From contig JAGGXR010000112.1 of NCBI GenBank assembly GCA_021162935.1, positions 997 through 64,996 on the forward strand: 64,000 nucleotides of DNA, in the 5' to 3' direction. Position numbers and translations under genes: made by a program. Each line of letters opens with the position of its first letter. The stretch's first letter is position 1. Shown piece by piece: positions 12,573 to 60,543 of this stretch. The stretch comes from Deltaproteobacteria bacterium (lineage in GTDB: Bacteria; Myxococcota_A; Polyangia; HGW-17; SLPX01). The notes beneath the pieces were generated by a model that did no database searches, was not told the origin of the DNA, and worked only from the letters and a program-made list of their open reading frames with translations.

Positions 12573-12768
12573 GTTTTCGGCAACGATACTATCTGAAAGA
12601 GGATGACCATTGCAAGAAGACACGCCGTCGCACCAAGGCGAACGGGCTGAAGAAATACGTTGGTCAACTGCCGAGTTGGAAGGCCGCGTACAGCACCAAC
12701 GTTTCCGATGGTATCGAAGCCCCCTTCTGTGGCGTCTGCCCGCCATGCCCCCAAGGCGAACACCTCGA

Positions 12769-28429: not shown

Positions 28430-28447
28430 TGTCCGACCTCCTGCGGT

Positions 28448-29827
28448 CTACTGCGCCGATGTCTGTGGAAACCGATCGAAAGCTTCTACCAAGGCGTCGA
28501 GTTGACGCCGACGGTGGCGCTCCGTCACATTCACAAGCAAAAGGTCCTTCCATTCCTGGCTGAAACGACCCAAAGGAACCCCCGCCAGAACGCCGTACTC
28601 TTCGAAAATCCGCCTGGCCACCAAGGCGGCATCCCCTGCTGGCACCTTCACGGCGAACTCATTATAGATCAGCGCCTGCGGATGGGCGAGTAGGCCGCGT
28701 TCGGCCAGTTTCTCGCGCAGGTACTTTGCCTTGGAATAGTTGAGGCGGGCCAAGTGCTTGAATCCCTGCCTGCCCAACAAGCTGAGATGCACCGCCAGGG
28801 ACACTGCCATGAGCGACTGGTTCGAGCAGATATTCGAAGTGGCTTTCTCCCGACGAATGTGCTGCTCCCGCGCGGCCAAGGTCAGCACATAGCCGACCCG
28901 ATTTTCTCCGTCCAGGGTTCGGCCCACCAACCGACCAGGCAGGACCCGCTTGTTTCGCTCGGTGGTCGCGATGAGTCCCACGCCTGGGCCGCCGAGGCTC
29001 ACCGGCCCCGCCATGCCGAGGCCATCGCCCACCACGATCTCGAAACCCAACCGACCAGGAGGCTCCAGCAGGCCGAGGCTCGTCAACTCCGAAACAGCAC
29101 AGCAAGAAACCGCGCCTACATCCTTGGCGCGTCGGCCGAGCTCGGCCAACGGTTCCACCACGCCAAAAAAGTTGGGCGATTGCACGAAGAGACAGACGGC
29201 CTCGGGACCCAGCGCCCCGTCCACACTGCAAAGATCGGTCGTGCCGTCCGGTCCAAGGCCCACCTCGACGAGGTCCAGGTCATCCATGCCGGACAGATAG
29301 GTACGAATCGTTTCCAGATACTCGGGATGCAGTCCCGTACTCACCACGACCTTGCGTCGCTGTTTCTGCCTAGCCACGATCCGCTGGGCCATCAGGACCG
29401 CCTCGGCACAGGCGCTCGCCCCGTCGTACAAAGAAGCGTTCGCCACGTCCAGACCCATGAGTTCCGCCACCATGGTCTGGAACTCGAACAACGTCTGGAG
29501 CGTGCCCTGGCTCACCTCGGGCTGATACGGTGTGTACGCCGTAAAAAACTCACCGCGACTGATCACGGAATCCACGGCTGTCGGAACGACGTGGGCGTAG
29601 GCGCCCGCCCCGAGAAACGACACGGAACAGGACAGTGCCCGGTTTTTTCCCGCCAGCCCACTGAGGTGATCCACCAAAGCGGCCTCATCGAGCGCAGGCT
29701 CCATGTCCAGCCGGCCGTCGAACCGGATGGACCGAGGAATCGAAGAAAACAAATCGTCTATCGACCGCGCCCCAATGACGTCGAGCATCGTCGACACATC
29801 CTGTGGCGTGTGCGGCAAGTATCTCAT
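28448..29827 (-). CDS. gcvPA: Glycine dehydrogenase (decarboxylating) subunit 1
   Basis: MRYLPHT, YTPYQPEVSQGTLQ, NASLYDG, REQHIRREKATSNICSNQ. Confidence 0.97.
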   Translation of the reverse strand: MRYLPHTPQDVSTMLDVIGARSIDDLFSSIPRSIRFDGRLDMEPALDEAALVDHLSGLAGKNRALSCSVSFLGAGAYAHVVPTAVDSVISRGEFFTAYTPYQPEVSQGTLQTLFEFQTMVAELMGLDVANASLYDGASACAEAVLMAQRIVARQKQRRKVVVSTGLHPEYLETIRTYLSGMDDLDLVEVGLGPDGTTDLCSVDGALGPEAVCLFVQSPNFFGVVEPLAELGRRAKDVGAVSCCAVSELTSLGLLEPPGRLGFEIVVGDGLGMAGPVSLGGPGVGLIATTERNKRVLPGRLVGRTLDGENRVGYVLTLAAREQHIRREKATSNICSNQSLMAVSLAVHLSLLGRQGFKHLARLNYSKAKYLREKLAERGLLAHPQALIYNEFAVKVPAGDAALVARRIFEEYGVLAGVPLGRFSQEWKDLLLVNVTERHRRRQLDALVEAFDRFPQTSAQ

Positions 29828-38700: not shown

Positions 38701-40821
38701 CTCGATGGCCTGGCGATAATTTCGGATGGCCCCATTGATATCCGCCATTTTCGTTTCCAGAAGCTGCCCCATTCTATAAAGAACGTCGGCCACATCCTGA
38801 TTCGCACGGCAGGTCTTGCGCTGCAGATGATACACCTCGACCAGCTCTTCCCATCGTCCCTGCCGATGCAGGAGGCGGCCGAGACCCGAAAGCGCATCCA
38901 GATACCCAGAGTTTACCTCCAAAACCCTTCGATACAACGTCTTGGCCGTTTCTTCGTCCTCCAGATTCCCATCGGCAATCGCAGCAGCCTGAGACAGAAG
39001 TGAACACTTCTCTTCGACGTCTTTAGTCAGACCCTCCTGTGCCACAAGCACGGCCACGAGATCTTTCCAGCGGCCTAGACGCTCGTAGAGCCTGGCGAGA
39101 CCCATCAAGGATTCACGGTGGGCAAGCATCTTGGGTTGGACCGTGGTCAGAAGGTCGGTCAAGCCAGACAGGAGCTGAACGGCTTCCTCCGGACGATCGA
39201 GCCGCTCTTCCAGAATCCCAGCAAGCCGTTTGGTCAGTGCAATCGTTCTCGCAGGATCGGTGCAGGCCTGGATTTCGGCTCGAAGCACTTCAGAAAGACG
39301 ATCCCATTCTTCGCGCATCGTAAACAGTCTATCGAGGGAACGAAACGCACGACCGCGCCCCTGCTCCAGAGCATGCGCCAACAAGTACAGGTGAATGGCG
39401 CGATCCGTCTTTTCGAGCCGATATTCCATCAGGTCGGCAAGCTCCAAAGCCACCGCCGCCCGCTGCCTAGAGTCCTCGAGGACCTGGACCTCCACCTCAA
39501 GCAAAGCGACCAGCGCCGACCAATCCTGCTGCTGGCGATAATGCTTGGCAAGGGCCCGCCGGGCCGGGAAGTCTCCTGGCCACACATTGAGCGCTTTTCG
39601 ATATGCCTCAATGGCACCAGCCGCATCCCCCTGTCGATTCTGTCGGATGGCCCCGACCTTGTAGTACAACGTCGCAACATCCCTTGCGGCGCCCGACGCC
39701 TCGATCTGCACCACCAATCGGTCCAGAACCGACGCCAAAGCCTGCCACTTGCCCGCCTGCTCGTAGAGAGCAACGAGTTCCCACAGAGGTAATTGCACAT
39801 CGGGACGAAGCGCCGACGCCTGTTCAAGGAGTTCGGCACTGCGATCCACGTCCTGGAGCTTCGTCCAGGCAAGCCAACCGGCCAGGAACCGATTCGCAAA
39901 ATTCAGCTCCATGTCACCACAAAGATCGGCCTCTTGGACCAAGACGTCAATCAGATCGCCCCATCGTTGTTGCTGATGCAGCAGACGCTCCAGGGACATC
40001 CTGGCGCCCTCGTTGTGGGGATTCGCCTTGACCGCTTGCAGGAAGAGCTCCGTCGCCTGATCCTGATTCTTGAGCCGATCCAGGGTAACGAACCCGGCCT
40101 CCCCGATGAGGGCTGATCGAAAATCTGGATCCGCCGTGACGGATGCCGCCTGGAGCAAAGCCTTGACCCTCGCTTTATGGTCGTATCCTTTCGAATGGAG
40201 TTCCACGAGGGAAAAATTGGTGGCTTGATAGGCACCATCGAGCTTGAGCGCCTTGGAAAATGCCAGCCCGGCACGTTTCACATCCGCCCGCTGATCGGCG
40301 TAGATCCTTCCGGCCCACTCCCAAAGGACCGCTCTGGAAGACTCTTCATCCGTCGCCTTGATTTCTGCTTCGATGGTCGCAACCACATCCCCCCATGCCC
40401 CCATGAGAACGTAACGCCGTCGGAGCGCCTCGGTGACCAGCACAAGCCCCGACAAAGAGGCCTTCTTGTACTGGGCCTGCGCCGAAGCCCCATCCCGAAA
40501 AACCTCCTCATCCAGACGCCCGATCTCATAGAGCAGCCGGGCGCTTCGCCGGACCTCTCCCTTTGGCTGAACGGTCAACTCGCTAACGTAGCTCTCCCGC
40601 AGGGCAGCCCAGACACTCAAGTCGAACCCGTTACCGTCCTGATCGTCGCCAATTTCCACGATCTGCGAGTCACTCAGTTCGAAAATCGAGGAAACATCCC
40701 CTCGCTCTTCATTTTCTGGTTCCTCCCCAACGGACGGAAGCCGAGGTTCGGGATCCGACTTCTGCTTGTTCGGACCCAATGCCTTGGTCTTCTTGCTTTC
40801 ACTCTTCTTCTTTGTGCCCAC
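35707..40821 (-). CDS. Giant (1704 aa) TPR protein resembling myxobacterial AgmK-type gliding-associated proteins
   Basis: Dense TPR-like repeats (A...Y..AL..P); conserved-looking C-terminal domain RVGLCACGDL...LLLYNIG...RARE. Confidence 0.75.
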   Translation of the reverse strand: MGTKKKSESKKTKALGPNKQKSDPEPRLPSVGEEPENEERGDVSSIFELSDSQIVEIGDDQDGNGFDLSVWAALRESYVSELTVQPKGEVRRSARLLYEIGRLDEEVFRDGASAQAQYKKASLSGLVLVTEALRRRYVLMGAWGDVVATIEAEIKATDEESSRAVLWEWAGRIYADQRADVKRAGLAFSKALKLDGAYQATNFSLVELHSKGYDHKARVKALLQAASVTADPDFRSALIGEAGFVTLDRLKNQDQATELFLQAVKANPHNEGARMSLERLLHQQQRWGDLIDVLVQEADLCGDMELNFANRFLAGWLAWTKLQDVDRSAELLEQASALRPDVQLPLWELVALYEQAGKWQALASVLDRLVVQIEASGAARDVATLYYKVGAIRQNRQGDAAGAIEAYRKALNVWPGDFPARRALAKHYRQQQDWSALVALLEVEVQVLEDSRQRAAVALELADLMEYRLEKTDRAIHLYLLAHALEQGRGRAFRSLDRLFTMREEWDRLSEVLRAEIQACTDPARTIALTKRLAGILEERLDRPEEAVQLLSGLTDLLTTVQPKMLAHRESLMGLARLYERLGRWKDLVAVLVAQEGLTKDVEEKCSLLSQAAAIADGNLEDEETAKTLYRRVLEVNSGYLDALSGLGRLLHRQGRWEELVEVYHLQRKTCRANQDVADVLYRMGQLLETKMADINGAIRNYRQAIEAESDHVPAQDALGDLLVRSERWEDYIEFLDHLAEGADPSRHAVSSLRATLILADRLSRPEGAAKRFESVLSVPAVADVALLAWERVLAQRGDWEGLAAVLEKQLEIGAWDAVRTGLRLSVLSRYLRPDKERALKDLAEVLALEPTNREALLSEQELLRKGAPPDRLAAAVISLADALSDRATAVALLKQKIAWVGQDGSEAGGEAAVARRILDAVPSDREALETLDRLAVEAGNDEALVDVCRMEIAHLKRGAEDAGAAYVRLGDILWRLGRLDEAAMAFERARTVHGDDLPAVRSLRMVRQLQGKQKDVAELLLEESCLCGDEKAAMDALMRAGDIWLIEFVDPAKAEEAYQKVFEMNPGHDVAFGRLTSLLSSRDAYQELTDLYRRRIAHIEAAARPDLMIELARVLMEHLEDNPGASSVLEEVLSLRPDDKKALEALAVLYPSTRRWREAARVIERLAEISRSDAEVVDYLLRLAEIEKDHLHEAQKAIEVTEKVLERDSENRQAREMLVDLALKLGQWEQAATGLADLAESSVPAQRAAWLIKLADVTSRGLAKPDEAQEYLVRAAALCLLAPEAIEELDRFFDERNDPAGYDALLGRVLEEATSDRPGSTALRLARARNLSRRLLKPELAETEVQKALAEDPESVEARLESAALHLWADRDGMALAEYKGVLKRDPVRYEAYRGLCQVFDKRGEVDRAHCAAQVLCVFDQATEEEEAAAEKAAVAMENAAPLPGSLRPDVIVELMSPEAEPMAARNLLFAVAPYLHGMFSRRLAGREMGDMDEIRPDHPWYQIASDAALRVGLDRFEILVDRSLGHRSVVIPGNTPALVLGEKLMEMAQPRTFGFLVGRAWAQAVTGSAFLEWADLHELELVLAGIVSQFDREFGQDLASRSDLAERGKAFMKQVPRRVRKSIEEPALVYAQAGAVGMATWQEAARTTAVRVGLCACGDLRGAAEVLRAEKADDDVLTGLLLYNIGSRLVRAREACGAVVAR

Positions 40822-41028: not shown

Positions 41029-42135
41029 CTATACGCCCCAGACACGACGCAAGGCGGTCAGCACCAAATCCGGCGCCACTTCCACCGACCACTCGCCATT
41101 TCCGGAACACATACGCCCCACAGCTTCTGGAAGCGCCATCCGAATCTTTCCCCCAAACGCCTTCTTGTCCCAGCTCATAACATGGACGAGTCGATCGGGG
41201 TCTGGGAACGTCGGCACATGCCAAATCCCGACTTCACGCAGAACCCCGAGCAACACATCCCGGTCGTCTGCGGCCAGCAGGCCGAGCAGGAACGCCACCT
41301 CCGCCTCCACCGCCATCCCGGCAGCGACGGCCTTTCCGTGGCTCAACCGCCACCCCGCTTGTTGTTCGAGGGCATGGGCGACGGTGTGGCCGAAGTTCAG
41401 CACTCGCCGCACCCCTTGTTCCGTCGTGTCCTGGGACACGACTGCCGCCTTGATTTCTATGGACCGGCAGACCGCCTCACAGCAGATGTCGGGCTCACCC
41501 CGCCACAAAGCCGCCGCCTTCTGCTTGAGAAAGGAGAGGTACCCAGCATCTGCGACCACTGCATGCTTGACCATCTCCGCCAGGCCACACCACGTTTCTT
41601 CTCGGGGCAGGGTCGCAAGGCTCGCCAGATCCACAAAGACCATGGACGGCTGATGGAAGGCTCCGACCAGATTCTTGCCTGCCGCCGTATCCACAGCCGT
41701 TTTACCTCCGACCGTGGCGTCCACCATGGCAAGAAGGCTCGTAGGCATGTTCACATACGGAACCCCTCGCATGTAGGTTGCGGCCACGAATCCGGCGAGA
41801 TCCGACGTCACCCCGCCGCCAAGGGCGAGCACTACCGTATCCCGGCCCAGGCCTTCGGCGAGCATCCTGTCCTCGATACCGACTTTTGTCCGCCGGGTCT
41901 TGCTCCTCTCCCCTGCAGGGAATGTCACTTTAACCGGTGCACGCCCGGTCCGCTCCAGCGCCCCTACCAATGACGGGCCATACAGGTCGAAGACAGTCCG
42001 ATCCGCAATGAGGCAGACGCGCCCGGGCGGAATGGTGGCCACCGCACGAGCCCACAGACCGACCCCGACGACCACCGGATAGGAAGGGCCTTTTTGGGGA
42101 GAAACGATGATCTCACGACAGGAATTCACAAGCAA
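41029..42135 (-). CDS. aroB: 3-dehydroquinate synthase
   Basis: GERSK, ALGGGVTSDLAGFVAATYMRG, PTSLLAMVDATVGGKT, GKNLVGAFHQP, LNFGHT...HG.AV. Exact start uncertain. Confidence 0.95.
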   Translation of the reverse strand: MLVNSCREIIVSPQKGPSYPVVVGVGLWARAVATIPPGRVCLIADRTVFDLYGPSLVGALERTGRAPVKVTFPAGERSKTRRTKVGIEDRMLAEGLGRDTVVLALGGGVTSDLAGFVAATYMRGVPYVNMPTSLLAMVDATVGGKTAVDTAAGKNLVGAFHQPSMVFVDLASLATLPREETWCGLAEMVKHAVVADAGYLSFLKQKAAALWRGEPDICCEAVCRSIEIKAAVVSQDTTEQGVRRVLNFGHTVAHALEQQAGWRLSHGKAVAAGMAVEAEVAFLLGLLAADDRDVLLGVLREVGIWHVPTFPDPDRLVHVMSWDKKAFGGKIRMALPEAVGRMCSGNGEWSVEVAPDLVLTALRRVWGV

Positions 42136-42141
42136 AATCGG

Positions 42142-44382
42142 TCAGCTTTCGGAGGTTTCTTCCTTGTCCGACTCCGTCGCGCCCTCGGCTTTGTCGTCAG
42201 CCTTCACGGTCGCCGTGGCACCAAGAGATTGCGCCACCAATTCGGCGATATCCAAAACCTGGACGGCGTCCTCCTTGTCGAGGCTTTTGAGTCCGTCCGA
42301 AATCATCGTCATACAGAACGGACAGGCCACGGCCACCACGTCTGCTCCAGATTCCACGATCTCTTTGGCGCGATCTTCGTTGATCCGCGGAGAATCCTCC
42401 TCCATCCAGAAACGGCCGCCGCCAGCACCGCAGCAGAAGCTGCGAGAGCCATGCCTGGGCAGTTCCACGAAACCCTGCGAGCCAGCAACGGATCGCGCGA
42501 TGACGCGAGGCTCGTCATAGATGCCGTTCCAACGGCCGAGGTAGCAGGAATCATGGATCGTCATCTTCTTGCCCACGGAGGTGTCCACCTTGAGCCGACC
42601 CTGCGCCATGAGGTCCACGATAAACTGGCTGAGATGCAGCACTTCGAAATCCCCGCCGAACTGTGGATACTCGTTCTTAAACGTATGGTATCCATGGGGA
42701 CAGCCGGTGATCAGTTTTTTCACCTTGTACTCTTTGAGGGTCTCGACGTTCTGATCGGCCAGCATCTGGAACAGGTACTCGTTGCCGCCCCTCCGCGCCG
42801 AATCCCCGCAGCAGACCTCTTCTGGGCCCAGTACGGCGAAGTTCACCTTGGCTGCCTTGAGCACGTCTATCGCGGCCTTGGCCTGCTTCTGTGCCCTCAT
42901 ATCATAGTTACCCGCACAGCCGATAAACAGGCAGTACTCCACCGACTCTGGATCGTCCAGCTCCCCAAACACGGGAACGTCCAAACCTTCGGCCCAGTCG
43001 AACCGACTGTCCGAGCCAAGCCCCCAGGGGTTGCCGTTTCGTTCCATCCCCTGGAAGGCATTCGCCAATTCGGCAGGAACTCTGTTTTCCTGTGCCAAGA
43101 CGAGATTTGTCCGCATCCGCAAAATGGCGTTCGGGTGGTCGATGAAGACCGGACAAACCTCCTGGCATGCACCACAGGTCGTGCAGAACCACAGGGTTTC
43201 GTCGGCAATGCGGCCCTTGGTCGGGTCCTCGATCGCCCCTTTTTGGACCATCGGCGGCAGTTCGTCGATCTTCTTCTGGATCGCCTCGGCCTCTTTCTCG
43301 TCCTTGGCGGCCTTCTTCTTGAGCATCAGCGCGCCCTTTTCGAGCATCTCGTACCGAATGTCGTGCATGAGCACCATGGGAGAAAGCGGCTTGTCCGTCA
43401 GGTTGGCGGGGCAGTGGTTCGTGCAACGGCCGCATTCCGTGCAGGAATAGGTGTCGAGCAGTTCCTTCCAGGTAAACTGCTCATAACGCTCCACGCCCCA
43501 GGCCGGTTCTTCGTCTTCGTCCTCGTCCTCGTCCCCTTCCAGGTCGATCTTGGGCATAACGCCCCGTTGCCCCAGCTTTCTAAAGAAAATGTTCGCCCAG
43601 GCCCCCAGGAGATGGATATGCTTCGAATAGGGCAAGTAATTCAGGAAAAAGAGCACGATGAGGAGGTGGATCCACCAATTGACCTTGACCACAACGAAAG
43701 CAGTGTTCGGTTTGAGCTTTGGCAAGACATAGGACAAATAGTCCGAAATCGGGGCTTCTCGCCCAATGTTCGCGATATTCTCAGAAGAGGCTGACTTGGC
43801 CGACTGAACCATTGCTGCTGTGACGGCTCGTTGTTTCACCTCGGACCGGCTGCGCTCACGCTGAATCGTATAGGCCTGCATGGTGTGATAGGTGAGCGTC
43901 AGGGCCGCAATCATCCCAAGGATGAGGGACGCATCGAAGTTGAGCGGGATCAGCCGCGGCTTAATGAAGATGCGCCGGAGAAATGCATAGACAATCACAA
44001 AGAAAACAACGAAGTTCGTCAGGTCCACAACGATCCGGAACCACCGGTAGAGCAAGGTTCCAAGAATATACTTGTACGGGTCCTGGAGACCGGACACCCC
44101 TGTGATGATCATCTCCAGGGTCTCTGCCGAGATGATCAGAAAGCCCCAGAAAATGAGCGGATGATGGAAGCTATTCTTGACCGGATACCCTTTGCTGGGT
44201 ATGTCCGCAACCTTCCTTTGGAAAAGGAAGTACTTGATGAACCCCCAAAATCGGGTTCCCAAATGGTCGAACCTGTTTTCGGGCTGGCCGAAGAGCATGT
44301 CCCGGACAAACCGCTGAACGCTCCAGCCAAAGATGCCAAACGCCAAGAGCACCAAAGCAGAAAAAACAATCTGTGAAACCAT
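42142..44382 (-). CDS. Membrane-bound Fe-S oxidoreductase (FadF / ETF:menaquinone oxidoreductase-like; cytochrome b-like TM domain, 2x[4Fe-4S], 2 CCG domains)
   Basis: CTECGRCTNHCP, CTTCGACQEVCP, EVCCGD, HDSCYLGR, FCCGAGGG, ACPFC; His-containing TM helices. Confidence 0.9.
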   Translation of the reverse strand: MVSQIVFSALVLLAFGIFGWSVQRFVRDMLFGQPENRFDHLGTRFWGFIKYFLFQRKVADIPSKGYPVKNSFHHPLIFWGFLIISAETLEMIITGVSGLQDPYKYILGTLLYRWFRIVVDLTNFVVFFVIVYAFLRRIFIKPRLIPLNFDASLILGMIAALTLTYHTMQAYTIQRERSRSEVKQRAVTAAMVQSAKSASSENIANIGREAPISDYLSYVLPKLKPNTAFVVVKVNWWIHLLIVLFFLNYLPYSKHIHLLGAWANIFFRKLGQRGVMPKIDLEGDEDEDEDEEPAWGVERYEQFTWKELLDTYSCTECGRCTNHCPANLTDKPLSPMVLMHDIRYEMLEKGALMLKKKAAKDEKEAEAIQKKIDELPPMVQKGAIEDPTKGRIADETLWFCTTCGACQEVCPVFIDHPNAILRMRTNLVLAQENRVPAELANAFQGMERNGNPWGLGSDSRFDWAEGLDVPVFGELDDPESVEYCLFIGCAGNYDMRAQKQAKAAIDVLKAAKVNFAVLGPEEVCCGDSARRGGNEYLFQMLADQNVETLKEYKVKKLITGCPHGYHTFKNEYPQFGGDFEVLHLSQFIVDLMAQGRLKVDTSVGKKMTIHDSCYLGRWNGIYDEPRVIARSVAGSQGFVELPRHGSRSFCCGAGGGRFWMEEDSPRINEDRAKEIVESGADVVAVACPFCMTMISDGLKSLDKEDAVQVLDIAELVAQSLGATATVKADDKAEGATESDKEETSES

Positions 44383-44616
44383 GGCTTCTACCACCTCCGT
44401 GCATGAATCAACTTCTGCCCCGATGGGCCGGGACCGCGACACGGCCCCCCGCGCCCCAAACGCGCCATATGTATCACGGGGCCAGGGTCGCTCCAAACAA
44501 AACGAGACGTATCAGAAAAAAAACAGCCGCCAGAAAGCGTTTCCGCTCAATGCCGACCATCCTGACAGACGATCTCGGCATCTACTCCCACGGCTCCTTA
44601 CATTCCGAATCACCAT

Positions 44617-48846: not shown

Positions 48847-50394
48847 CTAGAATCGGGCCTGAGAAAAAACCATCGCGCCAAATCGCCAGGGCTTCTCGTA
48901 ATCCAAGGCGGCGGTGCCGTTATGGAGGGTGACCAGATTCGTAAAGTTGTGGTCATACTGCAAGATGACCACCGCCATGAGTGTCATCATGTTGGAAAGG
49001 TCCCACTTGATGGACCCTTTGAGCGCGGTGATGGGCTTCGCCTTCTTCCCGTCGGGCAACACGGAGAAGTCTCCTTCGTCCCGAATCACGAGCACTTTGC
49101 GGCCCAGCACCACCGGTTGTCCGCCCATGCTTCCTGTCAGAGTCGTCTCCATGGTGGCCGGGACGACCATGGAGCCCACCATTCCGCCAAAGGTCAAATG
49201 TCGACTGGCCACGTACCAATCCGCCCCCAGAGCCACAAAAACCTGCGGGGTCGCCTTGGTCTCGGGCGACAACGCCTGGTAGGGAACAAAGCTCGGCACG
49301 TTGAGCAAGATGAACGGAACAGAACGGAGAAACGTGGTCAAATGGGCCCGCAGATACTTCCATTTCATCTTGGCGGAAAACGCCCCGGCATAAGCACTCT
49401 GGACCTTGGTGGTGCCGAAGTGGTCTGGGTCTTCGAGCGTCTGTCCGACGAGGGTGCCTTCGAGAGACACCTGATAGGAAAAACCAGGGCCATAGGTTTC
49501 CTTCCGACCAATGGAGTCCAAAAACGCCGAATCCGTGCGATAGAGGCGCAAGTCCGTAGAAATTCCGATGGGCATGCCTTTGTGCTGTGACAGCCGCATG
49601 GACCCGCCGAACGTCTGGACGGTTTGTCCTTCGACGCCATTATTCGGGTTGTCGCCCATATCGAAAAAACCACCGGACAGCTCGATCTTGACCCTGCCGG
49701 GCAATTCCACGCCGACTCCGGCGAGGCCGCCATAGACGGTCTCTGCTTCACGGCCCAGGCTCGTCTCACCATTTCCCCCAGGGGGTGGGTTGGTCAGGAT
49801 TCGCGCAGTCTTCATGCCTGCAAAAGCGTAGCCACTGGCCCATTTGAAACCCAACTTCACGCCAGGGGTAAGGTTGCTCTTGGCCGCGGGGAAAATGGAG
49901 GCGCCCCCCCAGGTCAGGCTGTACAGATAGCCAACGCGGAATCGATCGGTGGAAATGGGAAACATGGTCACGTCGAACATCGGAGCGTGTTGCCTCATTC
50001 CCCTGGAAAAATCATAGGCCACCCGCAGGTACGTGCCATCATCGAGGAACCGAATGTTCGAGGCGTCGGAGAAGTCCGCCTTGACCACGATAGCCGTTTC
50101 GGTGGAAAGTCCGGTAATAAAGCCAGGAAGCTTTTTATAAAGAACGAGATGCAACAGATTCTCTCGCCCCGTGTACTGGCTGTCCAGGTTGTCGAAGAAC
50201 AGCTTGTACCCCGGCCGATCCCCAAACCCGACGAGCGGGCTGTCTACGGTGGTCTCTCCGGCCTTGGCCAGGAAATTGTCGTCACCAAACGTAAACGTCA
50301 ACCGGGTGTCCACAAAGTCACCAGCCCGGGCCGTCTGGCTCCATAGCAACAAACCTGCCATCACCGCGAGATTGATCCGCCGATACTTTGACAC
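48847..50394 (-). CDS. Hypothetical outer-membrane beta-barrel protein
   Basis: Signal peptide ending ARA; many amphipathic beta-strands; C-terminal ...FGAMVFSQARF ends in Phe as in a BAM signal. Confidence 0.7.
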   Translation of the reverse strand: MSKYRRINLAVMAGLLLWSQTARAGDFVDTRLTFTFGDDNFLAKAGETTVDSPLVGFGDRPGYKLFFDNLDSQYTGRENLLHLVLYKKLPGFITGLSTETAIVVKADFSDASNIRFLDDGTYLRVAYDFSRGMRQHAPMFDVTMFPISTDRFRVGYLYSLTWGGASIFPAAKSNLTPGVKLGFKWASGYAFAGMKTARILTNPPPGGNGETSLGREAETVYGGLAGVGVELPGRVKIELSGGFFDMGDNPNNGVEGQTVQTFGGSMRLSQHKGMPIGISTDLRLYRTDSAFLDSIGRKETYGPGFSYQVSLEGTLVGQTLEDPDHFGTTKVQSAYAGAFSAKMKWKYLRAHLTTFLRSVPFILLNVPSFVPYQALSPETKATPQVFVALGADWYVASRHLTFGGMVGSMVVPATMETTLTGSMGGQPVVLGRKVLVIRDEGDFSVLPDGKKAKPITALKGSIKWDLSNMMTLMAVVILQYDHNFTNLVTLHNGTAALDYEKPWRFGAMVFSQARF

Positions 50395-50433
50395 GTCTCA
50401 CCTCCTTGCTGCGTTCGGACGGCGCCGAACCCA

Positions 50434-51891
50434 CTACTGTCTAAAATCGTCCGCCGTGCGCGGCAACAGGATCCAAGGCGGGCCGCCAAAGGAAAGTTGC
50501 TTGAGCGTCCCGGCAATGTAGGAAATCGTCTCTCCCTCGTGCTCGTTCGGGTCGAACGGAACGACCCCCTGCGTCACGACGGCCAGTTCCTGGCCATCCA
50601 CGTCAACTGTATACTGGAAATACTGGGTGTACGTTTCATAGACCCAGCAGGCCGGATCGTCCTCACAGTCGAACTTGCATTGTTTTTCCTCGGGTACATC
50701 GTAATCGACCTGGCCGTTTCCGTTCGTGTCACAGCGGGCGGAATGCCCGACGGTGACATTCTGGACGGCAACAAGCGACGCCTCGAGCTTCTCCATGGCA
50801 AAGTCATCCCGGATCGTTGCTCCATCCAAAACCAGTGGTTCGGGCAGAAACTGCGCACAGGCGGGGGGGCAACCGGCTTGCCCGTCGATACAGGTCGGAT
50901 CCGACCAGGCCGGATTTTTCAACTCGGTGAATCCGTTGAAATCATCTTCCCCCCCTTGGAGAAGTGTAATGCAATCGCCGGTCCTCAAATTCTCGGGCGA
51001 ATTGAAGTTGAATGCATAGATTGAGCCAAAATCTCGCCATGTGTCCGTTGCCAGCAACGGCCCCCCGTTGTTGCACACGTCCGTCAGGTAGAACCCTTGA
51101 GTGGTCACCGCAGTCACCACGAGCAGGGCACGCGTGTGACCTTGGCCGTCCACACAATCGTTGAGGCTGGAAAAATCATTGGCATTGTCCCCTTCGATCA
51201 GGACCCGATACCCCGAAAGGGGTGACTCATCGATATGGTCCTTGTCCACCCGCTGGACGTCTGCCACGGTTGGGGTATCGAATACGAAATCCCTGGACAC
51301 GCCCACCGCGCCGGTTCCCGCCTCAGGATTGTCATCATCCGTGCTCAGGCAACCCGTTCCCAATTCCGCGTGCCCCGAGGACCAACAGGCAGGACAGTCC
51401 GCACCATGCGTGAGGCACTCGTTCGTTACTTGCTTCGGACGATATCCAAGGTCTTCGACCATAATCTGCATCACGTCGAAGCCCGCTTGAAACGTCACCG
51501 GGACGTCGGCCCCCTGCCCATTTTGGATGGTCACGATCTTGACGGCCTGCTCGCCAGCCACCTGGCCAGGAAGACCATATGTGTCTGGGGTTCCGTTCGG
51601 CCACATGCCTGATGGCACCAAAGCGAGGGCCACGGTATCGTTGTAGTCCGTGTCCATGGTGCCATCCGGGCGAAGCGCCGTGATCTTGAGGTGGACGGTC
51701 ACCGGATCCAGGGAAAAGGGACAGGGGTCATCCTCGGTGGCCTGACACCCGGAAGGCGGCGCAACCACCTCGACGTAGAACGAAGTCAACTCGCGTCTGT
51801 GATCATCGCGCTCCACGACACAGGATGCCGTCATAAAGGAAAGCAGCGAAAACCAAACCATCGCACTGTGTATTCTCATCAGGTTCCTCAC
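50434..51891 (-). CDS. Lipoprotein with a YhcR/ExeM-like OB-fold and Cys-rich segments
   Basis: Lipobox-like MTASC; VTAVTTQGFYLTD...IYAF...GDCITLLQG...DFNGFTEL and EKLEASLVAVQNVTV resemble OB-fold segments of extracellular nucleases; GTGA overlap with the upstream gene. Confidence 0.7.
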   Translation of the reverse strand: MRNLMRIHSAMVWFSLLSFMTASCVVERDDHRRELTSFYVEVVAPPSGCQATEDDPCPFSLDPVTVHLKITALRPDGTMDTDYNDTVALALVPSGMWPNGTPDTYGLPGQVAGEQAVKIVTIQNGQGADVPVTFQAGFDVMQIMVEDLGYRPKQVTNECLTHGADCPACWSSGHAELGTGCLSTDDDNPEAGTGAVGVSRDFVFDTPTVADVQRVDKDHIDESPLSGYRVLIEGDNANDFSSLNDCVDGQGHTRALLVVTAVTTQGFYLTDVCNNGGPLLATDTWRDFGSIYAFNFNSPENLRTGDCITLLQGGEDDFNGFTELKNPAWSDPTCIDGQAGCPPACAQFLPEPLVLDGATIRDDFAMEKLEASLVAVQNVTVGHSARCDTNGNGQVDYDVPEEKQCKFDCEDDPACWVYETYTQYFQYTVDVDGQELAVVTQGVVPFDPNEHEGETISYIAGTLKQLSFGGPPWILLPRTADDFRQ

Positions 51892-54317
51892 TTGGTGGGA
51901 AACACTCGCCCAAGCCGACCGTCTTCCTTGGCTACGATACAGGGAAGTTGCTGACAGAGCGCCTCGGCCCGCCCCGGGGCCTGGGCCTCGCAGGCGTCCT
52001 TTCTCGCATCCTTTTCGTATGCGCAGTCCGCCTTATACATGTTCGTGAGGCTGTCCACGCACAAACTGTAGTTGGTCGGATCCCATCCGCAGGCTGGGTA
52101 CTGGGTGAAAATGTAGTCGGTCACGGCATCACGAAGCGAAATGCCTGTATTGAACTGCGTTGTGTTGTGCTCCAAAGTGGTAAAGCCGGAGCCACCATTC
52201 GCAATGTAATCGTTCGCCGCCAGCTTGTAGGAAACGTATTTTTCCACGGGCGTCCCACAGCCCACCGGAGTGCAGAGTTCGCCCGATGGACAGCACGCGC
52301 CATCTCCTGGTGTGTAGTCGGCGGGACAGGGATTCACCGGAGCCAGCCGCCAATCGCAGCAAGGCGGATCGGGCTGGGCTGGTGGTGGGTCCGGACAGGC
52401 CCCGGAGACCTCTCCAGAACAACGAGCCAAATCCATGCAGACTTGAGTGCTCGCAGGGGTGCAGGCCTGAAGTCCATCGAACTGGCAAAGAGGCCCATCG
52501 ACTCCTTTGCCGTAGGTCGCGGGATCCGACAACCGGCTGCCACCGATCGTCACACGCTCAGCACGCTCCCCGTATGGGCTGTCCTGCGGATCCTTGCAGT
52601 TCAGCACGGCGGTGATGCCCGACACCTGGGCCTGGGCCTGACAACCACGCCGCGCCGACCGCAGAGCCACGTAGTCCATCAACTCCAAAACCTCCGACCC
52701 AGACAGGGTCATGGTCGTGAGCTTGTTCTCGAACGGAAACACATTGTACATCACATCCACGGTCACCGGCCCGGACTCGATATCGGCACGGATGCCCAGG
52801 GTGTTCGTCAAGCCGAACTGGGCCTCCACGCGGTTCCTCGTCTGCATGGCTGCCGCGACCACGTCGCCCAAAGCCGAATCCCCTTGGCCCATTGGGTAGC
52901 GACGAATCTTTCTTGGGGCGAATGCAATGATGCGGCCCAGATGCAACTTTCGCTTCAACTGATACGTATAGTGCTGGAGGAGGGCCTGAATCCGGCCGTC
53001 GAATTCCGACTCTGGAATCCGCTCGTCCACGGGATGAAGGATGTATTGATACGAAGACAGCTCAAAACCATTTGCCTTCCACTGATTCACGTCCCTGTCG
53101 TGTTGGCGACAGCGTCCATCCTCCGGGTTCGCGTTGCAATCCGTGCCGTCTGGATCGGCTGGGCGATCCGGCTTGTTGAAAACCGTGTCCAGCTCTCCGA
53201 CGAACTTGACGAAAGCCCCCGAATGGACCAACGGCACCCTTCGATGATGCGGCTTACAGTCTGGGTCGTACCGAGGATCGCCCTTGGGATAGCAGTAGCA
53301 ACCCAACTTGGCCAGGTGCGCAATGATGGCGGCACCGTGCTCACTCGACAGACAGGACGGGTCTGGACTGCAATCTTGAAGCGCCTCCGGAGGGTTCAAC
53401 ACGATGTGCAGGTGTCCACCGAACACCACGTCAATACCCGTGGTGTATTGAATGAGCTGCTCGTCTCCGATAAGTTTTTGGATAATGGAACAACTCGAAG
53501 CGTCGTTGCCACAATTTCCATTCGGACAGTCCATTTCCAGATCGGTCTCGTCCCCACGGCTCATCTTCTTTTCGCCGCGCAGCCCCAGGTGGGACACAAC
53601 CGCGATAACGTCCACCTGCGGCCGCAAGAAATCGATCCAAAACTGCGTCTGTTTCACTGTCTCGAGAGGCGTCGCCCCCAAAGAATTCCCTCCGTAGTAC
53701 AACGATACAATGGAGCTGAGACAGCCCAGGCCGATGACCCCGATTTTGACCCCATCTTTGTTCAAAATCACGTACGGCTTGGCGATCTTGCCAAGTTCAC
53801 TGGCCCCGGGCACGTTCGGATTCGTCGTGTCGTAGTTGGCGGCCAGAAGGGGAAACCTCGCATACTCCTGGGCCAGTTTGACCAGGTTGCGGATACCAAG
53901 ATCGAATTCGTGGTTCCCAATGGCCATGGCGTCCACGCCGATCATGGAAAGCACCTTGAGTTCCACCTCTCCATCAAATTCGTTGAAGATTGGCGCCCCT
54001 TGAAACACATCGCCGCTGTCCAAATGCACGATTCGGCCGCCCTTGGCCCGAATCCTTCGGATCACCGTGGCGGCCCTGGCTGCGCCACCCACGTTCGTGG
54101 GGCCATCACTCCTGGTCTTGAGGCCGAGGGACTGGTCCGTGATGCTCACATGGAGGCTGTAGGGCAACAGGCGCGAGTGCCAATCTGCCGTATGAATGAA
54201 GGTTATCTTGACGTCGTAGTTCTCGACAGGGTCCACCTTCGTCTGCTTCAAACACCCAGAAAGGGTCAACAAAACAACGAGCCACGTGCTCGTCGCGATG
54301 CGTGTTGCCGTCTTCAT
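51888..54317 (-). CDS. Bifunctional metallophosphatase / 5'-nucleotidase lipoprotein with Cys-rich insertions
   Basis: Lipoprotein signal ...LTLSGC; HTADWHS, DSGDVFQG, GNHEFD, SHLG, GGHLH; C-terminal domain GIRADI, FPFEN, ANDYIANGGSGF. Alternative start at 54356. Confidence 0.92.
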   Translation of the reverse strand: MKTATRIATSTWLVVLLTLSGCLKQTKVDPVENYDVKITFIHTADWHSRLLPYSLHVSITDQSLGLKTRSDGPTNVGGAARAATVIRRIRAKGGRIVHLDSGDVFQGAPIFNEFDGEVELKVLSMIGVDAMAIGNHEFDLGIRNLVKLAQEYARFPLLAANYDTTNPNVPGASELGKIAKPYVILNKDGVKIGVIGLGCLSSIVSLYYGGNSLGATPLETVKQTQFWIDFLRPQVDVIAVVSHLGLRGEKKMSRGDETDLEMDCPNGNCGNDASSCSIIQKLIGDEQLIQYTTGIDVVFGGHLHIVLNPPEALQDCSPDPSCLSSEHGAAIIAHLAKLGCYCYPKGDPRYDPDCKPHHRRVPLVHSGAFVKFVGELDTVFNKPDRPADPDGTDCNANPEDGRCRQHDRDVNQWKANGFELSSYQYILHPVDERIPESEFDGRIQALLQHYTYQLKRKLHLGRIIAFAPRKIRRYPMGQGDSALGDVVAAAMQTRNRVEAQFGLTNTLGIRADIESGPVTVDVMYNVFPFENKLTTMTLSGSEVLELMDYVALRSARRGCQAQAQVSGITAVLNCKDPQDSPYGERAERVTIGGSRLSDPATYGKGVDGPLCQFDGLQACTPASTQVCMDLARCSGEVSGACPDPPPAQPDPPCCDWRLAPVNPCPADYTPGDGACCPSGELCTPVGCGTPVEKYVSYKLAANDYIANGGSGFTTLEHNTTQFNTGISLRDAVTDYIFTQYPACGWDPTNYSLCVDSLTNMYKADCAYEKDARKDACEAQAPGRAEALCQQLPCIVAKEDGRLGRVFPTK

Positions 54318-54672
54318 AGTCACCAACCTCCAAAGGGTCACATTTTTCGATTTCATTTTTGTTTCACCATAGCACAGCGCATCGCAGAACCAACGAAAAA
54401 CAGACATGGTATCATCCGGATTTTTTCGGGACCTTCGCAGCTCATGGCCTTGCCCCCCACCGCCCATAGACGAAACGTTCCCCATTCGAACATCGTCGCG
54501 CTTGCCCCCAGGGCAATGAGCCGCCGGGAAGCACGAGGGGATACAGAATCAACCGTCACGTGCTGGCCTGAAACTTCCGCCACTGAACCACCCCGAAAAA
54601 CGCGTTCCTTGACCCAAGGCACGCAGACACGTACTCTCCTTGTTGCCAGACACGCACGACAAAGGTGATCTC

Positions 54673-56424
54673 GTGGCGAATATTCTTGTGTACATCGAAT
54701 TTTCCGGACAACTGGCGCTGCCCGCATCGCTCGAAGCGCTCGCTACGTGTCGACCTTTGGCGACCCGGCTGGGGGCCTCCCTTTATGCAATTCTTCCCTG
54801 CAACGAGCCGCCTCTCTACGGAGAGGACGACCTCATTGCCAAAGTATCTCGTCACGGCGCCGACAAGGTCGTGTTGCTCACCCACCCAACCCTTGAGCCG
54901 CCGGCCACCTTCGACCGCCAGTCCACGTCTCTGGTCAACGCCTGCCGGAGACTGTTGCCATCTCTGCTCTTCTTCGCCGACACCACGACCGGCCGAGACC
55001 TAGCTCAGGGCTGTGCGGCTGCTCTGGGCGCCATTCACCTCGTCCATCCGTCCTTCCATGTCCAAAACTCCAGGTGGATGGCACGTCAGCGTGCAACGGA
55101 TGGATCCTGCTCCACCCAAGTGGAAATCAAAGAGGTGGGCCGACCTCTCGTCGTCCTCCAAGGCCCTCCTGTCGAAACGAAAGATCGTCAGTCCAATGAC
55201 GAAGCAGAGGTGGTGGTCCTGTCGGCCAGCGCCGGGCCTTCGCGCATCAAACTCATTACGCCCCTTGAACAGGAACGCCTGCCCGGAGACCACAGACCCT
55301 TGATCCTGGCGGGCCAAAATGTCCCGCCGCAGAGCATCAACCGGCTCCGACGATCCAGCGCAGCCCTCGGTCTGCGCTTCGGCGTCACCTGGTCCTGCTA
55401 CGACCGGGGACAGGGCTCCATCGAAGAGGTCGTGGGCCCAGGAATCGACCTCCCATGGACGAATCGAATCCTGCTCGTTGGGGCCGAAGCGGATCCCCTC
55501 ACCATAGCAAGCCTCCCGGCAACGGCTGAACTCGCCATGGTTGCGGCACCCGACTCCAAAAATATGGGCCCATTCCGAAACCGCGTTCGCAGGCTGCTCT
55601 ACCAGGACCTGGCCAGCTTCTGCGATGTCTTCGGCCCGGCCGACACGTCCGACGCGGCACAGGATGTACCGCTCGACCGATCTGAAACCGCAACCGATGA
55701 CTCGAAACCAGCCGACGAGTCGGCACGAACCCTTGCTGCTGACACCATCAAGCCGCTCGTGATCATTCCTTCGCTCGCTGAGATGGAAAGTGTTCAGTCC
55801 GCCATCACGGCCGCCGCCTTTTTTGGGCAGCCAGCCGGGCTCTTCTGTGGCCCACGAGACCAGGCACAAGCAGTAGTCGAGGCGGGGTCGTTCGAACAGA
55901 TCACCTGTCTTTGGGACGACCTACTCGCCTGCGCAGATCTCCGTGCGGTGGTCCACGTCTTGGCCTCTGCCATGAAACGACTCACCCCTTCCTTGCTCTT
56001 GGTGCAGGATCGAAGCCAAACGTGGAGCAGCGGACTGCTCGGAGCCCTGCTGGCTCATCAACTTGGCTGGCCATGTTTCTCGGGTATCGTGGACATTCGC
56101 CCCTGGCAGCCAACGGCCGAGACGAGCCCCGCTCGCATCGAAGTCGCACGCATGTACCATACAGAACGCCTCTGGTGGCGGGTCGACCTGCCTGCCGTGA
56201 TCTCGGTGGCCCACATTCGACCAACACAGCGGCCAGATCCGAAGACCCCTCACATCGACGTTCTTTCATTCGAAGATCTCTCCGTGAGCCCCAACGACAT
56301 TTTACCCTTGTGCAAAACTCAGACCGAACGCATCTCTGAGACAAAAACCGAACCAACCACCAGCCCGACCCCCAAGGACCTCCTGGAATGGCTGGCGGCA
56401 CAAGGCTGGATCCGCCCCCGGTAA
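54673..56424 (+). CDS. Single-chain EtfA-EtfB fusion-like protein with degenerate cofactor motifs
   Basis: N-terminus like EtfA domain I (ILVYIE, HGADKVV, TTTGRDLA); middle like the EtfA FAD domain; C-terminus like EtfB (ADLRAVVHVLA, LLAHQLGWP, IEVAR...VDLPAVISV). GTG start with AAAGGT RBS. Confidence 0.65.
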   Translation: MANILVYIEFSGQLALPASLEALATCRPLATRLGASLYAILPCNEPPLYGEDDLIAKVSRHGADKVVLLTHPTLEPPATFDRQSTSLVNACRRLLPSLLFFADTTTGRDLAQGCAAALGAIHLVHPSFHVQNSRWMARQRATDGSCSTQVEIKEVGRPLVVLQGPPVETKDRQSNDEAEVVVLSASAGPSRIKLITPLEQERLPGDHRPLILAGQNVPPQSINRLRRSSAALGLRFGVTWSCYDRGQGSIEEVVGPGIDLPWTNRILLVGAEADPLTIASLPATAELAMVAAPDSKNMGPFRNRVRRLLYQDLASFCDVFGPADTSDAAQDVPLDRSETATDDSKPADESARTLAADTIKPLVIIPSLAEMESVQSAITAAAFFGQPAGLFCGPRDQAQAVVEAGSFEQITCLWDDLLACADLRAVVHVLASAMKRLTPSLLLVQDRSQTWSSGLLGALLAHQLGWPCFSGIVDIRPWQPTAETSPARIEVARMYHTERLWWRVDLPAVISVAHIRPTQRPDPKTPHIDVLSFEDLSVSPNDILPLCKTQTERISETKTEPTTSPTPKDLLEWLAAQGWIRPR

Positions 56425-59175: not shown

Positions 59176-60543
59176 CTATGGCGTCTTTTTCTCCGCCACC
59201 ACCATTTCGTTCTCTTTGCCCAGTTTCCCATAAACCCGTCTGCGTGACTCCCGCAGTCCGTGGCGCGTGACCAATCGCCCCAGGTGCTTCCTGTCCATGT
59301 CCGCCATCCGCGCGGCTTTGGACAGGTTTCCTCCTGCCTCTGCAAGAATCCAACGCAAGTATCGACGCTGTGCCTCTTCGAGCCACGATTGCTTCCACTG
59401 AGAAAACGTCGTGCCCAGCTCCAACTTCCCGGGAACATAGTTGGCCCAAGAATCTTCATCAAGCAACCCCGCCAAGGACAAACCCTGAACCACGTCTTGC
59501 AGGTCCAGGATGTTCCTTGATAAACGGAGGTGTCGGACCACGACTTCCAGCCAAGGTGCCAACTCGGAATGCTTCGGATCCGCCCCCGGGGCGTTGGTTT
59601 CTCCTGTCGCCTTCGAGGCCTCCTGTTCTCTGCGCGTGCCCTTGTCGCCCCTCTTGTGGGCTAAAAACCTGCGCGCCAGTTCCCGCGCGTCCTTCGGTCG
59701 TTTCCTCAATGGCGCCAAGCGAATGACGATCCGTGTGAGGTATTCCGCCAAGCGACGATCCACAACCCCTCTGAGCGCATCCTCCATCAACTCATGGCTC
59801 GACACCGCCACGATTCTGGTCCACTTTTCCTCTCCCCGACCCTCCCAGTGGTCGTCCAGCAGACGCAGGAGTCGAAGCTGTGTCGACACCGACAACCCCC
59901 AGGGCTCCACCAAGACGAGCGTCTGTCCTCCCTCGACGAGACCTGCCTCGACCGCCGCAATCACCTCTGGCTCCGGTCTCATCACGTCGATCTCGACAAA
60001 GCCTGCCCCGCCAGGACCAGCTCGCTTCGCCAGGAGTTTCGCCATGGTCCTGCGGCCCGTACCCGGCTCCCCCACGATGGTGACCGGAGAGGCGATCCCA
60101 GCAGCCAAATCCACTGCCGCAATTCCCGATCGGCTCACCGCATCCTCTGCCACAAATCCCGCTGGTACGACGATGTCCTCTGCGTGCAGTTCGGGCTCCA
60201 CGTATACCGAACGTAAGGAAAGAACCACATCCCCTGCCGCAATGATACTGCCCGGTTTTCCATACGCCTTCTCCACGGCGCTCCCGTCCAGGACCGTTCC
60301 GTTTGTGGAACCAAGATCCTCCACGAAATATCCTTTCGGGCGTATCTGGATCCGCAGATGCCGCCGTGACACGGTGTCGTCCGCCAGCACCACATCATTG
60401 TCCAGAGCCTTCCCCACTCGGATACTATCCCCGCCGGTCAGATACACCCTCCCTGCCTCGCCCCCCTTCACAACACCAAGGCGCACCTGTCTCACCGCCA
60501 TAATCGCTCGGGCTTTGCTCCTGCTCTCCTCTTGTCGCGCCAT
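59176..60543 (-). CDS. FHA-domain, degenerate sigma54-activator-like AAA+, Fis HTH regulator
   Basis: FHA (VGK...DDTVSRRH...EDLGSTNGT); Walker A-like GEPGTGRRT; no GAFTGA loop; C-terminal GGNLSKAARMADMDRKHLGRL HTH. Confidence 0.8.
   Translation of the reverse strand: MARQEESRSKARAIMAVRQVRLGVVKGGEAGRVYLTGGDSIRVGKALDNDVVLADDTVSRRHLRIQIRPKGYFVEDLGSTNGTVLDGSAVEKAYGKPGSIIAAGDVVLSLRSVYVEPELHAEDIVVPAGFVAEDAVSRSGIAAVDLAAGIASPVTIVGEPGTGRRTMAKLLAKRAGPGGAGFVEIDVMRPEPEVIAAVEAGLVEGGQTLVLVEPWGLSVSTQLRLLRLLDDHWEGRGEEKWTRIVAVSSHELMEDALRGVVDRRLAEYLTRIVIRLAPLRKRPKDARELARRFLAHKRGDKGTRREQEASKATGETNAPGADPKHSELAPWLEVVVRHLRLSRNILDLQDVVQGLSLAGLLDEDSWANYVPGKLELGTTFSQWKQSWLEEAQRRYLRWILAEAGGNLSKAARMADMDRKHLGRLVTRHGLRESRRRVYGKLGKENEMVVAEKKTP

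Follow-up and report, generated by a model that had tools for sequence, protein, structure and literature searches.

One gene of the window, as we call the whole 64,000-nucleotide stretch of DNA analyzed here (contig JAGGXR010000112.1 of the Deltaproteobacteria bacterium assembly GCA_021162935.1), encodes a protein that holds the fold of a complete electron transfer flavoprotein (ETF) in one chain, with the alpha part ahead of the beta part. Textbook ETFs are flavoproteins of two subunits. Judged from the alignments, the canonical motifs for binding of flavin adenine dinucleotide (FAD) and adenosine monophosphate (AMP) are completely lost from this protein. By its fold it belongs to the ETF family, and it lacks those defining features of a working ETF, canonical or bifurcating, that were tested. 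On balance we lean towards the view that the fused ETF-like protein no longer carries electrons, and that the ETF fold has been reused for a non-redox role.

The Pfam ETF domain (PF01012) matched the whole protein in two stretches (E = 4.4e-21), and on separate scanning both residues 1–200 (46.3 bits) and residues 351–583 (35.1 bits) scored above the curated cut-off of 26.7 bits. The NCBIfam EtfB models matched residues 421–520, and the sequence matches in the PDB were EtfA and EtfB chains only. A single-sequence Pfam scan of the middle segment (residues 178–343) gave no match to ETF_alpha (PF00766), and a family profile was therefore needed to recognize domain II. The profile of eight middle segments from the fused family matched EtfA domain II (1efp_A residues 204–303, E = 1.4e-5) as well as 7qh2_A, 5ol2_A, 6fah_A, human 1t9g_R/1efv_A and 7koe_B, the matches to 1efp_A, 7qh2_A, 5ol2_A, 6fah_A and 1efv_A spanning E = 1.4e-5 to 1.3e-3.

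Structural modeling gave the same architecture. The AlphaFold2 model from a 43-sequence alignment of the clade had a predicted local distance difference test score (pLDDT) of 89.8 and a predicted template modeling score (pTM) of 0.91, with low confidence only at approximately residues 321–350; it superseded an earlier model from a 6-sequence alignment (pLDDT 68, pTM 0.56, domain superpositions 17–20 Å). When the model was compared with the PDB by Foldseek, the 47 best matches were all ETF chains. Whole EtfA chains aligned with template modeling (TM) scores of 0.72–0.74 over approximately 327 columns (1efv_A, 1efp_A, and 4kpu_A with a root-mean-square deviation of 4.3 Å over 327 columns), and the best TM scores for EtfB chains were 0.63–0.66. 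The C-terminal arm and terminal helix of EtfB, a further feature of the ETF fold, are present: the helix can be aligned to its C-terminal counterpart in canonical EtfB, the alignment with a canonical EtfB (L024:9226-9987) reaches the C-terminus, and the helix at residues 567–576 is modeled with confidence. Profile and structure searches thus returned ETF folds for both halves, with two PF01012-type domains and a homologue of EtfA domain II, and the single-chain EtfA-EtfB fusion proposed in the initial annotation is borne out for all three ETF domains. Its acidic linker was recovered as well (Table 1), and its domain limits fit the secondary structure of the model (55290-55630 corresponding to residues 206–319, and approximately 55760 to residue 363).

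For the cofactor sites, domain II was aligned with canonical EtfA (the WOR-3 EtfA of L023, P0005, P0146 and the 1efp_A fragment), the split relatives and all fused relatives, and motif residues were counted over eight fused sequences. The motifs that contact FAD are all replaced (Table 1), and the replacements that had been read from the sequence initially (LAGQN, VTWSC, VVGPG, GAEADPLT and the loop QDRSQTWSSGLLG) were all found in the protein. The arginine of GASR, which corresponds to the conserved human alphaR249 and whose pi-pi interaction with the flavin is reported from crystal structures (PMC8958531), is present in none of the eight fused sequences and is a tryptophan in six of them. 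Equally absent from all eight are the threonine of QVGQTG, the histidine of GISGAIQH, and both the asparagine and the aspartate of AINxD. The contacts of the FAD-site residues other than the arginine are those known from the 1EFV and 1EFP structures.

The beta part has changed in the same manner. The EtfB 'zipper' D-D-D-x-N-Q, conserved at 100/68/98/-/98/92% across 449 canonical ETFs, bridges the phosphate of AMP or FAD to a domain I arginine that is conserved in 447 of the 449 (PMC8958531). Here the zipper reads T-W-S-S-G-L, and in the column of the domain I arginine (Arg-165 of RpaETF) neither arginine nor lysine is found in seven of seven fused proteins; this protein has Q, and the others E, E, E, A, V or Q. 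The hairpin with NPxDE at the N-terminus of beta is shortened clade-wide, and this protein and P0002 lack it entirely. Lacking from the fused protein are, in sum, the electron-transfer FAD site, the AMP site and the two adjacent genes (etfB before etfA) of a functional canonical ETF, and of the loop and hairpin examined for the second FAD of bifurcating (group 2) ETFs the former is replaced and the latter deleted. Such a protein would be without electron-transfer FAD or AMP, and hence would be no electron carrier.

The gene is nevertheless maintained. Its nearest orthologue, P0002, comes from another metagenome and has the same neighbors; identity is 59% by BLASTP and 61% over a MAFFT alignment, ranging from 81% in domain I to 28% in the linker. 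The ratio of nonsynonymous to synonymous substitution rates (dN/dS, Nei-Gojobori) against P0002 is about 0.17 for the whole gene, with values of 0.08 (domain I), 0.28 (domain II-like part), 0.42 (linker) and 0.16–0.19 (beta part), all of which are approximate as dS against this sole close orthologue is saturated (1.5–2.3). Four contigs of JGI metagenome 3300017593, up to 77.7 kb long, carry the gene with identical nucleotide sequence, and therefore no within-population dN/dS was obtained. Among fused proteins of approximately 30% identity the replacement residues are themselves kept, as G-x-T-W, V-V-G-x-G, R-S-x-x-W-x-x-G and D-I-L-P-L-C. Every folded domain is under purifying selection, and the gene is not decaying. 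That it might be a relic without function, on its way to loss, is very improbable: although the lost cofactor motifs, the rarity of the gene (clusters of 1–3 member sequences) and the faster evolution of domain II and the linker relative to the remainder would suit a relic, the frame is intact (583 codons here and 586–638 in five other sub-lineages of approximately 30% identity), dN/dS in the folded domains is without exception well below 1, the new motifs and the genome position are conserved, and the AlphaFold model has very high confidence.

When 1.84 billion representative proteins were searched exhaustively with a profile, 210 clade matches reached E < 1e-3, of which 15 reached E < 1e-30, with this protein as the top scorer; among the clade matches listed, nearly all lack GGRG, GxSR, QVGQTG and GISGAxQH. 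A word-indexed protein search found only one full-length homologue, and its repetition with a family profile did not recover the remaining fused proteins, which were found by the exhaustive search and a scan of GTDB species genomes. In the GTDB scan, the clade occurred in metagenome-assembled genomes (MAGs) labeled Myxococcales, Polyangia, Haliangiales, Kofleriaceae and 'Deltaproteobacteria', with a single exception labeled Proteobacteria (L014); two further matches, from WOR-3 and an unclassified bacterium, were canonical EtfA genes. The full-length fused proteins are P0001, P0002, P0006, P0007, P0008, P0078 (partial) and the open reading frames (ORFs) of L008 (615 residues) and L009 (599 residues). 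They fall in clusters of 1–3 sequences each, and the sole name given to them is the JGI label 'electron transfer flavoprotein alpha/beta subunit'.

Most members of the clade are encoded by two genes, alpha' followed directly by beta'. In the nearest unfused relatives the stop codon of alpha' overlaps the start codon of beta' (L006 8987/8987, L007 7979/7979), and from this gene order with overlapping codons a fusion follows simply. The split pairs (P0004 with L006:8987-9763, P0003 with L007:7979-8725, and L012) have the same alpha-beta order as the fused protein; those closest in sequence are 39% identical to it in domain I and 34% in beta (E = 3e-15 for the C-terminal half). Split and fused members have in common an insertion in domain I, here LPCNEPPLYGEDD, whose pattern LPC-x3-PP-x-YG-[ED][DN]D is strongly conserved in both and absent from canonical EtfA. 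They also share the beta motif R-S-x-x-W-x-x-G in place of the AMP loop (RSQTWSSG, residues 447–454, in this protein). The fused protein descends from a split alpha'/beta' pair, within a clade that occurs almost entirely in Myxococcota MAGs. A neighbor-joining tree built on domain I grouped the seven fused proteins together as a clade in 63 of 100 bootstraps, which is only moderate support for a single fusion event; the sister group of this clade (73/100) is made up of split alpha' proteins whose C-terminal tails are long and disordered, such as those of L012 and P0012. The acidic linker corresponds to this disordered tail (seen in P0003, P0012 and P0020), and in view of the sister relationship it is most simply explained as what was once the alpha' tail, which lost its stop codon and so became linked to beta'.

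The erosion of the motifs, correctly noted in the initial annotation, turned out not to be peculiar to this gene, since split members of the clade are already without GGRG and QVGQTG. Many split pairs keep GISGSxxH, AINxDxxAPI and a detectable PF00766 (31–52 bits in P0003 and P0004), whereas the fused proteins have lost the two motifs. Retention among split members amounts to 26/40 for the histidine of GISGSxxH, 25/48 for the asparagine, 33/48 for the aspartate and 11/38 for the arginine, and is nil in the fused forms, which have the most eroded sites of the clade. Two proteins of 416 and 447 residues, P0023 (L028:7163-8413, right behind a DUF507 gene) and P0027, have domain I fused straight to beta, with no domain II. 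On the domain I tree they branch apart from the fused clade and are independent fusions within the same clade. The conserved core of the clade therefore does not need the FAD head. The absence of flavin from the fused protein is made more plausible by these relatives, which dispense with domain II, and by the finding that domain I, without a cofactor of its own in canonical ETFs, is by far its most conserved part.

Canonical ETFs (human ETFA/ETFB, 1EFV; Paracoccus denitrificans, 1EFP) have the same three domains as the model (TM 0.72–0.73 for alpha and approximately 0.60–0.63 for beta); both PF01012 domains are present in the fused protein too, and the domain I motifs DTTTGRDLA...AAxLG and GADKV are kept. 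They are, however, two polypeptides encoded as etfB-etfA, whereas the fused protein is one, with GGRG, GASR, QVGQTG, GISGAIQH, AINxD and DDDxNQ all replaced and the NPxDE hairpin deleted; it carries the extra conserved PC-PP-YG-DD insertion and has no dehydrogenase or ETF-QO partner nearby. The alpha-then-beta order is the reverse of the usual etfB-etfA (PMC12042025), and also of that in our canonical control locus L024, where etfB (9226-9987) lies ahead of etfA (10001-11002). A precedent for an ETF-derived protein unable to hold the electron-transfer FAD is the ETF-alpha-related Ta0212 of Thermoplasma acidophilum (3FET), whose domain I-type fold was solved without an FAD domain (TM 0.66–0.67 to the model); unlike the fused protein, it is a single domain of approximately 165 residues with no domain II or beta part, and it is not close in sequence. 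In the literature found, neither a cofactor-less ETF, nor an alpha-then-beta fusion, this clade or a link between DUF507 and ETFs was described, 'group 5' of Garcia Costas et al. (2017) being unchecked for overlap.

The fused protein could instead be a working electron carrier, with FAD, another flavin or a dinucleotide in a non-canonical site, that serves an unlinked dehydrogenase. We think this improbable. The full three-domain architecture is retained and selection on domain II is purifying (dN/dS 0.28), as would be expected of a carrier, but PF00766 is undetected in this protein and detectable in its split relatives. A fused ETF with two FADs is known, as the monomeric bifurcating SaETF of Sulfolobus acidocaldarius, the only characterized fused ETF, is likewise a natural single chain of both subunits and is redox-active (PMC12042025). 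Its order is EtfB then EtfA (PMC12042025), the opposite of that described here, and the fused protein differs further by its acidic disordered linker and by the missing motifs of both flavin sites. The residues of GISGSxxH and AINxDxxAPI that persist in some split members would also suit a carrier, but the FAD-contacting motifs are replaced in all eight fused sequences, with tryptophan for the flavin-stacking arginine in six, and the zipper for AMP or bifurcating FAD is gone together with the NPxDE hairpin. One split pair has genes for an acyl-CoA dehydrogenase and an SDR just upstream; the conserved neighborhood, by contrast, holds no dehydrogenase partner, and some relatives have no domain II.

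At a distance of 10 kb lies the gene for an Fe-S/CCG oxidoreductase, which would be in favor of an electron carrier and had been put forward as a partner of the ETF-like protein. This candidate was rejected on the evidence at hand, as unrelated genes lie between the two and it belongs neither to the conserved neighborhood nor to the synteny of related loci. The 784-residue Fe-S/CCG protein (42145-44496, minus strand) has a 4Fe-4S dicluster and two CCG domains and resembles HdrD/GlpC/TfrB. Its NCBIfam matches are all below cut-off, residues 1–340 are without family match, and its gene adjoins that of a 3-dehydroquinate synthase (41032-42135, minus strand).

The surroundings of the fused gene were compared over five loci (window/L002, L001, L008, L009 and L026) from three sub-lineages that are approximately 30% identical to one another. 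A divergent 5'-nucleotidase gene lies upstream in all five, followed by two genes of unknown family wherever the contigs reach; in the window, the 481- and 515-residue products of these two genes had no Pfam, NCBIfam or PADLOC match. Downstream, the fused loci have a convergent AAA_16/TPR STAND gene, an FHA-sigma54 activator and, rightward, a Na/H antiporter. An AAA_16/TPR orthologue occurs within 6.5 kb of the ETF-like gene or genes in 14 loci, split and fused, and the split pair L012 has the same downstream AAA_16/TPR and FHA-sigma54 neighbors as the fused gene. Upstream the two forms differ: where the fused loci have the 5'-nucleotidase operon, the split pairs usually follow DUF507, a gene that 14 split or domain I-beta loci have upstream on the same strand (immediately upstream in 13) and that none of the five fused loci contains. 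Searches of the window for DUF507, ATP-grasp_5-like and ClpB-like genes and for canonical etfA or etfB found none.

Split pairs also often precede a gene for a protein of 490–620 residues, in a recurrent Myxococcota cluster DUF507, ETF-alpha', ETF-beta' and this protein (L006:7469-11622, L007:6307-10527, L019:9343-13968, L020:405-4562). The 490–620-residue protein has sub-threshold similarity to Succ_CoA_lig and ATP-grasp_5 and may be another degenerate enzyme fold; in the L006 cluster, two ClpB-like AAA genes come next.

The conserved neighbors raise the possibility of a ligand sensor, in which a remodeled pocket would bind a nucleotide or metabolite and signal to the STAND protein and the FHA-sigma54 activator, or regulate the 5'-nucleotidase operon. 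We consider this rather unlikely, though the neighborhood is kept in all three fused sub-lineages in spite of their low identity, with the AAA_16/TPR orthologue near split and fused genes alike. ETF domains I and III have an adenine-nucleotide alpha-hydrolase-like fold, and new conserved tryptophans appear to occupy the very places of the flavin and the AMP phosphate. The evidence for a sensor is synteny, however, with the genes convergent or divergent and in no shared operon, and STAND/TPR and sigma54 regulators are so plentiful in Myxococcota genomes that their proximity is of low specificity. Moreover, Pfam and NCBIfam scans found no DNA-binding or signaling domain in the protein, and the split loci have DUF507 rather than the 5'-nucleotidase upstream. 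A reading as anti-phage defense was rejected; PADLOC did not match the ETF-like protein and gave its neighbors only generic TPR and sigma54-AAA matches.

The non-redox reading that we favor can be set out as follows. A single polypeptide would rebuild the whole ETF heterodimer from domain I, a domain II-like head, a disordered acidic linker of approximately 38 residues, and domain III with its arm. It would have arisen by read-through fusion of an alpha'-beta' pair with overlapping stop and start codons in a Myxococcota lineage. After or along with the fusion, all electron-transfer FAD residues in domain II would have been replaced, as would the beta residues that hold AMP (or the bifurcating FAD). 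The product would be a stably folded, ETF-shaped module kept by purifying selection for a non-redox role, which could be the binding of partner proteins or of a different small ligand, possibly with the adjacent AAA_16/TPR STAND regulator. A role as scaffold or sensor is speculative, with the conserved neighbors (AAA_16/TPR STAND, FHA-sigma54 and the 5'-nucleotidase operon) as pointers, and the 'pseudo-ETF' idea of the initial annotation is reasonable but unproven. A wider form of the proposal takes the whole alpha'/beta' clade, with the fused form as its end point, as an ETF-derived pseudoenzyme module that has structural tryptophan instead of redox cofactors and acts with the STAND (AAA_16/TPR) NTPase and the FHA-sigma54 activator as a metabolite- or nucleotide-responsive signaling unit; this we offer tentatively, and consider rather unlikely.

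Several points weigh against a cofactor-free, non-redox protein, in addition to the saturated dS and the moderate bootstrap support given above. Missing canonical motifs do not prove that flavin or nucleotide is missing. With its DHS-like fold, domain II could accommodate a different dinucleotide, and the conserved glycine of V-V-G-x-G, present in 8/8 fused sequences, could still line a phosphate site. In this protein, arginines flank the Arg-165 column at positions -1 and +1 (A-R-Q-R). The link to the AAA_16/TPR gene is one of synteny alone, between genes that are convergent and not co-transcribed, and may reflect a slowly rearranging core region.

The coordinates of the gene, its domains, the replaced motifs and the neighboring genes are given in Table 1. 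Counted from the GTG at 54673, the gene comprises 583 codons and a stop, which agrees with the 584-codon ORF of the initial annotation. This GTG is taken as the real start because the Shine-Dalgarno-like site AAAGGTGA lies ahead of it and the N-termini of the homologues agree, all of them beginning M-A-N-I-L-V-Y-I-E at this position. The G + C content at the three codon positions (0.66/0.49/0.68) is typical for genes of the window. The start region of the ORF as listed is overlapped by a 906-residue ORF (51948-54668, plus strand) antisense to the 5'-nucleotidase gene, which was rejected as a gene and judged a shadow ORF typical of GC-rich DNA.

Table 1. Position of the ETF-like gene in the window, its domains and motifs, and the genes next to it.
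Feature	Window position	Strand	Residues	Basis or remark
Open frame as listed	54640..56424	+		ORF listing
Complete ORF, single-chain ETF-like protein, alpha' then beta'	54673..56424	+		ORF list, Pfam, homologue search, AlphaFold model, Foldseek
Shine-Dalgarno-like site AAAGGTGA	54661..54668	+		read directly; 4 nucleotides upstream of GTG start
EtfA-like domain I	54673..55227	+	1-185	PF01012 46.3 bits; most conserved part
Clade-specific insertion LPCNEPPLYGEDD	54793-54831	+	41-53	domain I, after strand 2
Connector of domains I and II	55228..55287	+	186-205	predicted secondary structure
EtfA domain II-like part (FAD-domain homologue)	55288..55632	+	206-320	profile match to 1efp_A; pLDDT ~88-96
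sGGRG replaced by LAGQN			212-216	domain II, alignment
GASR replaced by GVTW (GVTW-SC)			237-242	domain II, alignment
QVGQTG replaced by VVGPG			253-257	domain II, alignment
GISGAIQH replaced by GAEADPLT (VGAEADPLT)			270-277	domain II, alignment
AINxDxxAPI replaced by VAAPDSKNMGPF (reads VAAPDS)				domain II, alignment
Acidic linker	55633..55746	+	321-358	10 D/E vs 3 K/R; pLDDT 49-59; predicted disordered at residues 321-350
EtfB-like domain III	55747..56217	+	359-515	PF01012 35.1 bits; NCBIfam EtfB at residues 421-520; alignments to canonical EtfB and split beta'
AMP 'zipper' loop QDRSQTWSSGLLG	56005-56043	+	445-457	domain III, alignment to EtfB
EtfB-like C-terminal arm	56218..56421	+	516-583	D-I-L-P-L-C at residues 542-547; terminal helix LLEWLAAQGWI
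Three-gene unit (5'-nucleotidase, 481- and 515-residue proteins)	48850-54317	-		transcribed away from ETF-like gene
5'-nucleotidase/UshA-like gene, 809 residues	51891..54317	-		Metallophos and 5_nucleotid_C; divergent; first of the three-gene unit
AAA_16 and TPR (MalT-like STAND) gene, 885 residues	56484..59138	-		convergent, ~60 nucleotides downstream of ETF-like gene
FHA-sigma54 activator	about 59176-60543	-		beyond AAA_16/TPR gene

Elsewhere, the window encodes a 1239-residue protein with two Ser/Thr kinase domains and TPR (9030-12746, minus strand), a 1704-residue TPR-repeat protein (35710-40821, minus strand) and another sigma54 activator (351-1865). A Myxococcota origin fits this content, given the many Ser/Thr kinases, TPR proteins and sigma54 activators. 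Adjacent GcvPA- and GcvPB-like genes (459 and 501 residues; 26927-29827, minus strand) encode a split glycine-cleavage P-protein of ordinary metabolism.

An A-then-B fusion with an intact, selected fold and replaced FAD and AMP contacts would be a clear case of the conversion of a redox scaffold to a pseudoenzyme, and the graded series from canonical ETFs through split alpha'/beta' pairs to the fused form shows the path of this conversion within one phylum. If the loss of the cofactors is true, the fused protein separates what is structural from what is catalytic in the ETF fold (for example, whether tryptophan can replace AMP as the 'glue' at the interface that domain I forms with domain III), and points to an unrecognized function in uncultured Myxococcota. 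If a flavin is bound instead, the protein would represent a new solution to FAD binding in the ETF family. Should the whole clade prove to be a signaling unit, this would be the first non-redox regulatory use of a complete ETF fold.

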